Below are positions 3,855 to 42,582 of a stretch of 44,281 bases of DNA, in pieces. The notes beneath the pieces are model-generated. The model was not told the DNA's origin and ran no database searches. It saw only the letters and a program-made list of their open reading frames with translations. Every line of letters starts with the position of its first letter. The stretch's first letter is position 1. The stretch spans positions 1 through 44,281 of the forward strand of contig JAGGZI010000014.1 in the NCBI GenBank assembly GCA_021162085.1, written 5' to 3'. This DNA is from Candidatus Aenigmatarchaeota archaeon. Lineage in GTDB: Archaea > Aenigmatarchaeota > Aenigmatarchaeia > PWEA01 > JAGHBM01. A program made the position numbers and the translations under genes.

Positions 3855-4319
3855 ATGTTCGGACGAAAAGGACAATCAGCACTAGAGTACTTGATGACCT
3901 ATGGATGGGCTATATTAATAATAATAGTAGTAGGAGGAGTTCTTTACTACTATGGTGTGTTTTCTCCAGGAAAGATCGTTGGAGAAAGCAAAACAGGATT
4001 CAGCAAAGTCCAGGTAGATACATGGGGAATAGATACTAGCGGCAACTTACAATTAGTACTTGAAAACAGGGTAGGTAGCGATATAAACATAACCCAAATA
4101 GAAGTAAAGTCAGGAACAAAGACAGATACTTATACACCTACAGGTGGTATACCACTAACGGCTGGACAAAGGAGTGATCTTGAAACTGTAACACTAACAA
4201 ACAACAAGCTGAATGCTGGTGACACATATAAATTCGATGTTACAATAACTTACTACTTACAGGATTATGGCCCTGGAACAACGTTCAGAAGTACTGGAAT
4301 GCTGTCAGGAACAGCTTAA
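3855..4319 (+). CDS. Archaeal type IV pilin (class III signal peptide)
   Basis: RKG/QSALEYLMTYGWAILII prepilin cleavage motif, hydrophobic helix, beta-rich body; GGTGA RBS. Confidence 0.9.
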   Translation: MFGRKGQSALEYLMTYGWAILIIIVVGGVLYYYGVFSPGKIVGESKTGFSKVQVDTWGIDTSGNLQLVLENRVGSDINITQIEVKSGTKTDTYTPTGGIPLTAGQRSDLETVTLTNNKLNAGDTYKFDVTITYYLQDYGPGTTFRSTGMLSGTA

Positions 4320-4820: not shown

Positions 4821-5399
4821 ATGAGGTTTGGAGCGCTTGAAATTCTTACGAATGATGAAGTTTATGAGCCAAGGGGAGATAGCTTTCTTTTAGCTGAATT
4901 TCTCGAAGGGATGAAAGACCTTGGTGATGTTCTGGATATGGGAACTGGCTCTGGTATTCAGGCACTAGTGGCATCAAAAAATGCAAAAAATGTTTTAGGT
5001 GTGGATGTAAACCCTGAAGCTGTGAAACTGGCAAGAAAAAATGCAAAAATAAATGGCATAAGAAACGCCTCCTTTGTGGTAAGCGACCTATTTGAAAACG
5101 TTAAAGAAAAATTTGACCTGATAATCTTCAATCCACCATACTTGCCAGTTGATGACAAAATAAAAGGAGCAGAGCAATGGTCTTGTGGAAAGAATTTAGA
5201 GATCATAAAAAGGTTTGCAAGAGATGCAAAAAATCACCTGAAGGAGAATGGAAATATCCTAATGGTCATATCTTCCATAACTGGCTTGAAAGGGGTTAAA
5301 AAAATTTTTGAAGAATTTGAATTTAAAGTTGAGGCTGTAGGAAAGAAAAAAATTCCATGGGAAACTCTATATATCCTCGAAATAAAAATTAAAAGTTAA
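4821..5399 (+). CDS. prmC: HemK2/PrmC (MTQ2-like) release factor glutamine methyltransferase
   Basis: VYEPRGDSFLL, VLDMGTGSG SAM motif, NPPY motif. Confidence 0.9.
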   Translation: MRFGALEILTNDEVYEPRGDSFLLAEFLEGMKDLGDVLDMGTGSGIQALVASKNAKNVLGVDVNPEAVKLARKNAKINGIRNASFVVSDLFENVKEKFDLIIFNPPYLPVDDKIKGAEQWSCGKNLEIIKRFARDAKNHLKENGNILMVISSITGLKGVKKIFEEFEFKVEAVGKKKIPWETLYILEIKIKS

Positions 5400-8267: not shown

Positions 8268-8470
8268 TGGTGCCTGGGGTGGGTCAACCATTTCCCCAGA
8301 AAACGCTTTGCGTCTTCAAGTTTTGGGAAGTACAGAGACCTTTTTTGAAAAAGGGATCTGTTTTCGAACCCACGACCTCTAGATTTCTCACCATATCATA
8401 ATCCTCTCAGACTCATCACTCATAACTTTTGTTATGAGTCTAGCGCTCTAACCAACTGAGCTACCCAGGC
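8268..8470 (-). tRNA. tRNA-Met(CAT), elongator type, 2 introns (37/38: 8385-8432; T-loop ~59/60: 8285-8362)
   Basis: Spliced GCCTGGGTAGCTCAGTTGGTTAGAGCGCTAGACTCATA/ATCTAGAGGTCGTGGGTTCGAA/ACCCACCCCAGGCACCA; BHB helix CUCA/UGAG at the anticodon intron. Confidence 0.88.
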
Positions 8471-8796: not shown

Positions 8797-8949
8797 ATTG
8801 TAAATTAATTTTTATGCAATCTATAAAAAAGTTTCCCTTCCATTCAAGGCAATGTATACTCAAGACCTGAGAAAGAAATAAGGATAAAAATCGATGCCTT
8901 ACTACACACCGACATTTAAAAACAAAAAATTTTGGTGGACTTGTCGGGA

Positions 8950-9100
8950 CTCTCTCGAACCTGCAGGGGGCAAGCCCCCTTCAGTTTTACGGTATTCCTG
9001 ATATCTTCCCTTCCTTTTAAAATTGGCAAACTTTCAGTTTGCCCAAAATTGTTTCTTTGGGAAATACAAAAACCTTTCTTTCAAAAGAAAGGGATTTGTC
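8950..9100 (-). repeat. T-loop intron of tRNA-Ala, near-identical to the tRNA-Arg T-loop intron (42244-42397)
   Basis: About 100 consecutive identical nt from ttcagttttacggtattcc to aaaacctttcttt. Confidence 0.95.
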
Positions 9101-9133
9101 TTTGAACCCGAGACCTCCGCCGCTCTCAGACCA

Positions 9134-9287
9134 TTCACCAAGCCAGTTTCCGTTGACGTCTTGAGATTTTATCTCAAGTATTTGGAACATTGAGTTCCAA
9201 AACTTTACGCCGAGTAAAGGGTCATCCAAGTTTTCTGACTTCACCAAGCCAGTTTCCGTTGACGCTTTACGCCGAGTAAAGGGTCAT
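9134..9287. repeat. 48-bp direct repeat inside the tRNA-Ala anticodon intron (9240-9287 intact; 9134-9225 interrupted by a 44-bp insert at 9159-9202)
   Basis: ttcaccaagccagtttccgttgacg|ctttacgccgagtaaagggtcat is present twice. Confidence 0.95.
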
Positions 9288-9747: not shown

Positions 9748-10410
9748 ATGGCAATGGGAGCTTTAACAACGATAGGAGCAAACCTTTGGTATTCGTTCCT
9801 GGACTTTCTCCCGAACCTAATAGGAGCAATAATCTTACTAATAGTGGGCTACATAGTAGGAAAAATCAGTGGAATAGTGGTCAGAGAGATTCTAATAAGA
9901 GTTGGTGTAGACAAGTATCTCCAAAAGGAAGAACATATTAAATTCAAGACAAGTACAGTGTTCGATGTGATAACAAGATGGTTCTTGTATATAGTATTCA
10001 TCAATGCAGCGATAGAAGTACTTGGTATATCATCCCTAGTGGATGTAATGCATACAATAATATACTTCATACCAGGAGTAGTTGGAGCAGCAATAATAAT
10101 AATTGCAGCATACGGAGTTGGACTGTACATAAAGGAAGAAATACTATCATCAAAAACAATATACTCTGATATAGTAGGGAAGACCATATTCTTCTTAATA
10201 GTGTATCTTGGAGTTGCAGTGGCACTACCGTTGGTTGGAATTAATCCAACTATAGTAAACGACATACTCTTAGTGATAATAGGTTCGCTTGGACTAGGAC
10301 TAGCAATAGCACTTGGACTTGGATTAAAGGATGTCATAAGGGACATGGCAAAGGATTACGCAACTGAGTTCAGGGCGAAGAGAAAGAGGATGAATAGAAG
10401 AAGGAAGTGA
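9748..10410 (+). CDS. TM_helix-repeat membrane protein (CmpX/MscS-transmembrane-like)
   Basis: FLPNLIGAIILLIVG and FIPGVVGAAIII repeats, C-terminal AIALGLGLKD. Confidence 0.8.
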   Translation: MAMGALTTIGANLWYSFLDFLPNLIGAIILLIVGYIVGKISGIVVREILIRVGVDKYLQKEEHIKFKTSTVFDVITRWFLYIVFINAAIEVLGISSLVDVMHTIIYFIPGVVGAAIIIIAAYGVGLYIKEEILSSKTIYSDIVGKTIFFLIVYLGVAVALPLVGINPTIVNDILLVIIGSLGLGLAIALGLGLKDVIRDMAKDYATEFRAKRKRMNRRRK

Positions 10411-10500
10411 GAATTCTTTTTCCCTTTTTTTAATTTTTATTTCAATTAGAATTAAATATATAAACTATTTTATTGTTTAATAAAATTAAGATGTGATTTT

Positions 10501-25990: not shown

Positions 25991-26228
25991 TGGTGCGCCA
26001 GCCGGGACTTCCACCCTACGGAGGGACACCAAGGTTTCCCTCCTTATGGGTATATTCTCCCTTCCTTTTAAAATTGGCAAAAGCGAAGCTTTTGCAAGTT
26101 CTTTCCTATTGCCCTTTCTTCTGAAGAAAGGCAATTTTGAACCCGGGTCTCGAGCTGTCTCCACTCCAACTCATTTGACTGAGTAAATTGCTTGGGAAGC
26201 TCGGGTCCTACCACTAGACTACTGGCGC
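25991..26228 (-). tRNA. tRNA-Gly(CCC), 2 introns (37/38: 26157-26192; 59/60: 26008-26135)
   Basis: Spliced GCGCCAGTAGTCTAGTGGTAGGACCCGAGCTTCCCA/AGCTCGAGACCCGGGTTCAAA/TCCCGGCTGGCGCACCA; BHB helices UUCC/GGAG and UUCA/UGGA. Confidence 0.92.
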
Positions 26229-42226: not shown

Positions 42227-42529
42227 TGGTGCCCCTGCCGGGACTTTCACGAACCCGCAAGGAACCTACGGTTCCTTTCAGTTTTACGGTATTCCTGATA
42301 TCTTCCCTTCCTTTTAAAATTGGCAAACTTTCAGTTTGCCCAAAATTGTTTCTTTGGGAAATACAAAAACCTTTCTTTTGAAAGAAAGGGATTTGTCTTT
42401 GAACCCGGGTCCCAGCCTTTCTACTTTGCGCTGAGTAAAGGGCCACTTCTACAAGCCAGTTTGATGAATCTTTATGCCGAGTAAAGATTCTCCGCAGGGC
42501 TGTATCCTATCCAGCTAGACTACAGGGGC
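42227..42529 (-). tRNA. tRNA-Arg(GCG), 2 composite introns (37/38: 42419-42491; 59/60: 42244-42397)
   Basis: Spliced GCCCCTGTAGTCTAGCTGGATAGGATACAGCCCTGCGG/AGGCTGGGACCCGGGTTCAAA/TCCCGGCAGGGGCACCA; BHB helices CUGC/GUAG and UUCA/UGAA. Confidence 0.9.
42244..42397 (-). repeat. T-loop intron of tRNA-Arg, near-identical to the tRNA-Ala T-loop intron (8950-9100)
   Basis: Direct alignment; differences are confined to hairpin tips and the splice-junction end. Confidence 0.95.
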
Positions 42530-42582
42530 ACTAAACTATAAATATATATAGTATAGAATTTAATAAAGTTCAAGGTGTAATA

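Follow-up and report, generated by a model that had tools for sequence, protein, structure and literature searches.

We investigated the gene for tRNA-Arg(GCG) located on the minus strand, at positions 42227-42529, of a 44,281-nt stretch of DNA (hereafter the window), which is one whole contig (JAGGZI010000014.1) of the Candidatus Aenigmatarchaeota archaeon assembly GCA_021162085.1, here called G000. The anticodon loop of this gene is interrupted by a 73-nt insert (42419-42491) which, as far as can be read from the sequence, is a real intron adjoining the anticodon and holds two copies of a small repeat. With a probability of about 0.7, the insert represents one composite bulge-helix-bulge (BHB) intron between nucleotides 37 and 38 of a functional tRNA-Arg(GCG), with an interior derived from the repeat. 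An earlier sequence-only reading of the window had proposed two tandem introns at this position: the location at 37/38 and the two repeat units were confirmed, while the second, internal 3' splice site, which lacks its own flanking helix and is disfavoured by the fold, was not.

The gene consists of three exons and two introns and encodes its CCA end (42229-42227); all its features are on the minus strand. Exon 1 (42492-42529) corresponds to tRNA nucleotides 1-37 and comprises the acceptor strand GCCCCUG, the D arm, the anticodon-stem strand CAGCC (42502-42498) and the loop sequence CUGCGG, i.e. C32 U33 G34 C35 G36 G37 at 42497-42492, with the anticodon GCG. Exon 2 (42398-42418, nucleotides 38-59) provides A38, GGCUG, a 4-nt variable region, the T-stem strand CCGGG and UUCAAA, and exon 3 (42227-42243, nucleotides 60-76) contributes U60, CCCGG, CAGGGGC, A73 and CCA. 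The 73-nt intron at 37/38, delimited by sequence reading, folding and in silico splicing, is accompanied by a 154-nt intron in the T loop at 59/60 (42244-42397), which shows a helix UUCA/UGAA and a 3' bulge AG^U adjoining the T stem (here and below ^ marks the predicted junction). In silico joining of 42529-42492, 42418-42398 and 42243-42227 returned a 76-nt tRNA-Arg(gcg) as called by ARAGORN. The 37/38 boundary is ambiguous by 1 nt, since an A is found both as intron nucleotide 1 and as nucleotide 38. The unspliced gene gave no ARAGORN call and no Rfam match, and it is not covered by any convincing open reading frame (ORF). A TATA-like A/T-rich stretch occurs 5' of the tRNA start (42535-42550) and may act as promoter.

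The 3' side of the insert shows the features expected of a BHB motif. Loop nucleotides 32-35, CUGC (42494-42497), provide the predicted 5' strand of the central 4-bp helix and are pairable with GUAG (C-G, U-A, G.U, C-G) of the terminal hexamer GUAGAA (42419-42424), this strand occupying intron nucleotides -6 to -3. The following AA and A38 (42418) make up a 3-nt 3' bulge, A A ^ A38, after which GGCUG is paired to CAGCC, and excision at the canonical 37/38 position leaves a canonical tRNA. The minimum free energy (MFE) fold of the arm, at -22.4 kcal/mol, contains the anticodon stem, the helix between CUGC and the terminal GUAG, and the 3-nt 3' bulge. Enzymes for this type of splicing are encoded in the same genome: a single alpha-type EndA endonuclease on contig C51 matched both PF02778 and PF01974 (95 and 67 bits), and RtcB was found on C25 with 584 bits. 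The match to the EndA catalytic domain takes up 93 residues for 85 profile positions, thus leaving room for an insert in the enzyme. A second, weak EndA match (C5, 13 bits) fell in a 265-aa ORF unlike an endonuclease subunit and was set aside.

The interior of the insert could be divided into parts of a repeat. Unit 1 opens with the hairpin H1 (42466-42490), a 9-bp stem with a 7-nt loop starting from intron nucleotide 2, which is present in the MFE fold and whose outer stem covaries. It continues with a linker, AUCAAACUGGCUU, conserved in the family alignment (42453-42465), and with an internal GUAGAA (42447-42452), which matches a motif column of the family and is probably not a used splice site. 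The truncated unit 2 carries a second hairpin core, H1' (42424-42440), common to the orthologous gene of the related genome G001 (19/22 identical), and the GGCC flanking H1' (42444-42441) has no partner strand. What the sequence-only reading had described of this layout was all found as stated, namely GUAGAA occurring twice, at 42447-42452 and 42419-42424, and pairing with CUGC, the division of the 73-nt insert into 45 and 28 nt by the internal hexamer, and a hairpin in both units, with a 17-nt core at 42486-42470 and 42440-42424. The relationship it had drawn with other anticodon introns was also borne out, as the 11-nt word AAACUGGCUUG (42461-42451) recurs in the tRNA-Ala intron at 9149-9139 and 9255-9245, and a degenerate UUUACUCAGUCAAA is present in the tRNA-Gly(CCC) intron near 26160-26200. 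The H1 loop (ACUCRGC) can form 4-7 of 7 pairs with a downstream GCUKGRU word, with no covariation. A box C/D reading of the insert was rejected, since neither RUGAUGA (C box) nor CUGA (D box) occurs on its tRNA strand and since it gave no Rfam match at E <= 10.

Syntenic genes, flanked as in G000 by a gene for a 53-aa zinc-ribbon protein and one for a membrane protein, were identified from these neighbours in five relatives. Compared with the 73 nt and two H1 units of G000, the 37/38 intron measures 57 nt in G001, a member of the same genus (H1 family, second H1 copy present), 96 nt in G003, from a third genus (H1 family, with a second, degenerate H1-like copy), 46 nt in G004, where the H1 core word is absent, and 14 nt in G002, where it is a mini-intron; G005 has no 37/38 intron and its contig ends in the T loop. 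The second H1 copies in the orthologs show the two-hairpin layout to be old in this gene. The syntenic genes keep their exons, with compensatory changes, and the splicing rule of G000 restored an ARAGORN tRNA-Arg in G001, G002, G003 and G004. The terminal strand varies and remains pairable with nucleotides 32-35 of its own gene, at 3/4 positions in G003: GUAG, GCGG and GCAG pair with CUGC, and GCGA with the UUGC of G002. The GCAG terminal strand was also found in contigs of at least one further relative.

Additional differences were observed in the G001 ortholog (L034 368-430, C20). Its acceptor stem is a different one (GCUCCCA / UGGGAGC), despite upstream intergenic DNA 93% identical to that of G000 as far as the tRNA start, and its T arm bears two mini-introns, at 53/54 (13 nt) and at 59/60 (12 nt), in place of the 154-nt intron. 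A metagenome scan with a 16-nt word of exon 1 returned 120 loci, all of them chance matches in coding DNA except L262, and no further ortholog. L262, a metagenome contig of an unrelated organism, contains a tRNA-Arg(GCG) 37/38 intron with four GCAG-bearing words, three of them AUGCAG; the GCAG of each word is pairable with the loop CUGC, so that it offers another case of multiplied 3' splice strands.

The repeat belongs to a family restricted to close relatives. An exact 15-nt H1 word was detected in 7/8 genomes of the Aenigmatarchaeota-like family f1 and, within the class, in 0/143 genomes outside this family; the same search with the word reversed gave 0. The word occurs 11 times in G000. 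In this genome the 17-nt H1 core is present twice each in the 37/38 introns of tRNA-Ala(CGC) and tRNA-Val(CAC), once in that of tRNA-Arg(CCU) and twice in a fragment of a gene that lies where contig C48 ends, and H1 also occurs in two 16S rRNA inserts, the second as a variant with a 4-U/4-A stem matched by the 15-nt word. The Ala(CGC) and Val(CAC) introns are identical at 162/167 positions though the tRNAs differ. Across 20 distinct contexts the outer stem of H1 covaries (GAAU/AUUC, GAAG/CUUC, UAAG/CUUA, AAAU/AUUU), with further covariants GAC/GUC or GGC/GCC around a C.C mismatch; these compensatory changes indicate that the hairpin is selected as RNA. All parsed tRNA copies of the family are located at 37/38, with none at a non-canonical position, and the other copies lie in 16S rRNA, in intergenic DNA and directly after a tRNA 3' end. 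The proposed kinship with the Ala intron and, as a relic, with the Gly intron holds, whereas the description of the family as specific to the anticodon site is too narrow for the 16S copies, an intergenic array and the copy after a tRNA. A scan with a degenerate 17-nt H1 word yielded chiefly chance bacterial matches, with at least three or four useful archaeal loci among the matches listed.

H1 units were found in several other arrangements. The Ala(CGC) intron (164 nt, window 9123-9286, minus strand) and the Val(CAC) intron (167 nt, G000 C16 about 5220-5390, minus strand) each contain a plain H1 unit and then a second unit with a two-hairpin insertion, and this second unit alone occurs in a tRNA-Gln of L076, from a metagenome-assembled genome titled Pacearchaeota ex4484_71. 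At L022 (G005 C47 about 4030-4161), a composite of a plain unit and one bearing the two-hairpin insertion begins 3 nt beyond the CCA of an oddly interrupted tRNA gene and continues up to the contig boundary. At L024 (G003 C43 1880-2120) and L023 (G007 C1, in the intron of tRNA-Thr(CGU)) an H1-type unit is nested in the loop of another H1 hairpin, in the same arrangement; the G003 units make up an intergenic array, three in number, and no tRNA exons lie nearby. No convincing 4-bp helix with 3-nt bulges was seen for the nested units on G003 C43 and in the Thr gene of G007. The fragment at the C48 end (G000 C48 25740-25917, minus strand) shows an anticodon-loop-like UUCGCA, two H1 units and then protein-like sequence, with no recognisable 3' tRNA half after the units; a split tRNA half, a decayed copy and a break in the assembly are all conceivable.

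On the basis of these data, we infer the cleavage sites, the removal of the insert in one step and the mobility of the repeat as follows. In the precursor, the loop CUGC (nucleotides 32-35) and the terminal GUAG would form the central helix, the anticodon stem would close beneath the 3-nt bulge A A ^ A38, and G36 G37 ^ A would lie above the helix, adjoining the 9-bp H1 that starts from intron nucleotide 2. The alpha-type EndA would then cut after G37 and before A38, and RtcB would join the exons; the 154-nt T-loop intron would be removed likewise at 59/60. The interior would be cargo, made of two copies, the first complete and the second truncated, of a repeat of ~45-60 nt (H1, AUCAAAACUGGCU..., G(G/A)UGAA) that multiplied in the RNA genes of one Aenigmatarchaeota-like family inside splice frames, the loop-matching strand being the site's own. 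The internal GUAGAA would be a G000-specific variant of G(G/A)UGAA, or else the 3' junction would have undergone a small duplication; in neither case would it be needed for splicing.

A number of observations weigh against a single composite intron. The 5' side does not show the 5' bulge and outer helix of a strict hBHBh' motif: the nucleotides 5' of the terminal GUAG are unpaired with intron nucleotides 2-6, their place after intron nucleotide 1 being taken by H1. The bulge is not canonical, and both G36 and G37 are paired in the MFE fold. As no continuous outer helix is formed, the motif has to be considered relaxed (hBH-type), and the enzyme would need to accept such a relaxed motif. When the whole 303-nt precursor was folded, both candidate helices, with the terminal and with the internal GUAG, had a pair probability of only 0.004, and thermodynamics therefore settles little. 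In G003, only 3/4 positions of the terminal strand pair with the loop. Moreover, when the intron interior was shuffled 20,000 times with dinucleotides preserved, the exact terminal hexamer recurred in 1.1% of the shuffles, and some 4-mer pairable with CUGC was present in 59% of shuffles; these rates make the exact repeat mildly unusual and a second loop-compatible strand not unusual. Unit 1 is laid out like the complete short introns of G000, which consist of a hairpin, AUCAAAAC, a few nucleotides, a 4-nt strand and 2 nt (42 nt in tRNA-His, 44 nt in tRNA-Arg(UCG)), and it agrees with the G003 tRNA-His intron at 41/50 positions and with the G003 Arg intron at 33/42, so that the His intron is at least as close. 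Finally, the 3' strand is found doubled in other introns as well, namely in Arg(UCG), Gly(CCC) and the Gly(UCC) of G003.

The exact hexamer, the layout of unit 1 and the doubled 3' strands are all in favour of two tandem introns, spliced stepwise or by alternative routes, in which CUGC would pair first with the internal GUAG, releasing 45 nt, and, once the ends had been joined, with the terminal GUAG, releasing 28 nt. To these can be added GGC (42444-42442), which is pairable with the anticodon-stem GCC if a bulge of 4 nt is accepted, and the fact that either route would result in the same mature tRNA, so that splicing at the internal site would do no harm. We nevertheless regard this explanation as unlikely, in view of both comparative and structural data. 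The sequence-only reading had staked the two-intron claim on conservation of the internal GUAGAA in relatives, and this conservation is lacking: the syntenic site reads GGUGAA in G001 and G003, both with the loop CUGC, with which GGUG is unpairable. In an alignment of ten family members (the Ala row left out), the column of the internal hexamer reads G(G/A)UG(A/G)(A/G) in 9/9 other members, from which GUAGAA is reached by one or two substitutions, and in single-unit introns this motif block is followed by 3-12 nt more before the true 3' strand. Forcing the internal GUAG helix gave -18.0 kcal/mol, i.e. 4.4 kcal/mol worse than the MFE, with a pair probability in the arm fold of 0.001 against 0.60 for the terminal GUAG. 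No proper helix follows the internal bulge: even the best arrangement has a bulge of 4 nt and only 3 bp, GGC alone being pairable with the anticodon stem. The 45-nt arm left after removal of unit 1 does not have a BHB as its MFE structure. Internal loop-compatible 4-mers are also no more frequent than by chance, 22 being counted in 13 introns of G000 compared with 19.6 +/- 2.9 in dinucleotide shuffles, 24.5% of which reach 22.

The 4 nt before the last 2 intron nucleotides were compared with host nucleotides 32-35, and the two pair at 4/4 positions in 8, at 3/4 in 4 and at 2/4 in 1 of the 13 introns. The earlier suggestion that the 3' end of the intron adapts to each host loop is thus supported as regards the pairing; as regards its source, the strand looks derived from the frame and not from the repeat. 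In the 16S rRNA gene, a hairpin with the stem GCGAA(G/A)G / C(C/U)UUCGC, whose variation is compensatory, carries inserts in G000, G004 and G007 that are framed by UCAC ... GUGG A(G/A)^U and lie between the 6th and 7th loop base, which is the 37/38 geometry. The interiors at this framed site are three different ones, the H1 type being present only in G000. Similarly, the T-loop intron of the Arg gene measures 154 nt in G000 vs 12 nt in G001, the 3' ends of the two being similar. From the 16S frame and the T-loop site, the repeats may be taken as exchangeable cargo, and the loop-matching 3' strand looks like part of the resident splice frame and not of the repeat.

In a further explanation, the H1 unit would itself be a mobile mini-intron that enters 7-nt hairpin loops, those of anticodons and at least one of 16S rRNA, between bases 6 and 7. 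Landing on an already occupied 37/38 site, it would generate tandem introns with the younger, intact copy at the 5' junction, each with its own loop-matching 3' strand, to be removed by recursive BHB splicing, and the Arg insert would be such a case. We hold this explanation to be distinctly unlikely.

The 16S rRNA gene of G000 (C4, plus strand) contains short inserts at 9814-9893, about 9925-9975 and 10419-10493. The first is of the H1 type, shows no convincing 4-bp helix with 3-nt bulges (about 9826-9880), and also occurs in G004 and in G007, with an extra two-hairpin insertion in G007. The second has a hairpin resembling the start of the T-loop family, and the third, again of the H1 type, lies in a 7-nt loop within a clean BHB frame, the frame being kept in G004 and G007 around other interiors. 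The 154-nt T-loop intron of the Arg gene belongs to a second repeat family, which starts with GACAAAUCCCUUUC; it shares 89% identity with the T-loop intron of tRNA-Ala (8933-9110) and 94% with one in a tRNA-Gly of G001, and pieces of ~50 nt were also met in genomes of the class that belong to other families (G022, G031).

Alternatively, the internal GUAGAA might be the scar of an insertion or slippage event that placed a 22-nt H1' segment before the 3' strand and copied a 6-nt target, with no role in splicing. The 22 nt between the two identical hexamers do derive from the repeat, the 3' strand region is doubled in short tandem in Arg(UCG) with a 9-nt period and in Gly(CCC) with a 5-nt period, and the unrelated L262 intron has its four GCAG-bearing words. 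What makes a scar improbable is the G001 ortholog, in which H1' occupies the equivalent place between GGUGAA and GCGGAG, agreeing at 3/6 positions, so that unit 2 is older than the perfect repeat; in addition, the left hexamer matches the motif in family members without a second unit. As for a decayed pseudogene or an assembly artefact, with an insert devoid of splicing logic, the gene does lie among repeats at which G000 contigs break (as at the C48 end) and is missed by standard tRNA finders, but such an origin is very improbable, since the exons restore a canonical tRNA, this is the sole Arg(GCG) gene among the 18 tRNA genes of the census described below, the syntenic orthologs keep their exons with compensatory changes, and contigs from two independent runs, possibly the source samples themselves, match over 42349-42559 without differences. 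No RNA run was listed as containing the stretch; among the DNA contigs of four runs, no form lacking a single unit was found, and the single joint belongs to a relative's contig in which 65 other letters replace 42463-42532.

The Arg insert is most likely a further instance of the archaeal BHB intron type already known, and we compared it with described systems. In the Thermoproteales, related introns are reported to have been copied between tRNA genes in a 'large-scale intron transposition' (Fujishima et al. 2010, as cited in PMC4090602 and 10.64898/2026.10.13.758758). The G000 introns share with these near-identical introns in different tRNA genes (Ala/Val 162/167), BHB-constrained retention and restriction to a lineage. 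They differ in belonging to a DPANN Aenigmatarchaeota-like family, in having all tRNA copies at 37/38 and not at many positions, in that the H1 element also occupies 16S loops, an intergenic array and a site behind a tRNA 3' end, and in their tandem and nested copies. Broad-specificity endonucleases are known from DPANN archaea, such as the epsilon2 enzyme of ARMAN-2 (PMC3239211) and loop-bearing alpha4 enzymes (PMC5829648). G000 resembles the DPANN genomes with multiple introns and relaxed motifs in its small genome, in tRNA genes that are mostly interrupted and missed by finders, and in its single alpha-type EndA. BHB introns have also been described in 16S rRNA genes of Thermoproteales (PMC4496867); the 16S loop insert of G000 has a comparable 4-bp helix and 3-nt bulges, and differs in being a mini-intron of ~57 nt with no open reading frame and an interior shared with tRNA introns. 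In the literature searched, supplements aside, no account was found of the H1 intron family, of tandem or nested archaeal tRNA introns, or of tRNA introns in Aenigmarchaeota.

How introns are gained in archaeal tRNA genes is unsettled, and sequence evidence for their copying has so far come from the Thermoproteales. The DPANN lineage studied here provides a second, independent case, in which a hairpin repeat fills the splice frames of anticodon loops and 16S rRNA. As introns are nearly identical across genes and the Arg(GCG) intron measures 0, 14, 46, 57, 73 or 96 nt, gain, loss and exchange of interiors can be compared across a few genomes. Two separately spliced introns at one site would be new if true; the evidence presented here speaks against them.

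The interruption of tRNA genes extends to the whole G000 genome (790 kb, 58 contigs, 37% G+C, 87.6% complete). Because its tRNA genes are interrupted, standard finders see only 2 of them: ARAGORN, with introns allowed, reported 2 tRNA genes in the whole genome, and the Rfam tRNA model scored above its cut-off twice. A custom census, from which four further candidates were dropped as non-tRNA, identified 18 tRNA genes whose 5' halves are intact; a 37/38 intron is present in 13, and a further T-loop insert in most.

Strands complementary to the anticodon loop were also found in introns of other tRNA genes. The archaeal tRNA-Trp intron is known to hold a box C/D guide RNA and, with it, an anticodon-loop-complementary strand unrelated to splicing (PMC4090602). 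The tRNA-Trp intron of G000 (C21 1806-2009, minus strand) is of this type, with CUGGAGC complementary to nucleotides 31-37 and then UUGA (CUGA only in G003), and the Arg insert differs from it in having no C/D boxes. This box C/D-type guide is kept in 6/6 genomes of the family looked at (including L166-L170), and its conservation indicates that internal loop-complementary strands can have causes other than splicing. Counted from the UUGA/CUGA box, C34 is at the target position. The repeat that makes up the 5' part of the Trp intron differs between genomes: G000, G001 and G007 have a hairpin like that of the His intron there, and G002, G003 and G004 the 5' part of the T-loop family. Finally, tRNA-Met(CAU) (window 8351-8463, minus strand) contains a 48-nt 37/38 intron in which UUAUGAG is complementary to loop nucleotides 32-38; this intron also carries the box C/D-like words GUGAUGAG and CUGA, together with three internal copies of UGAG.

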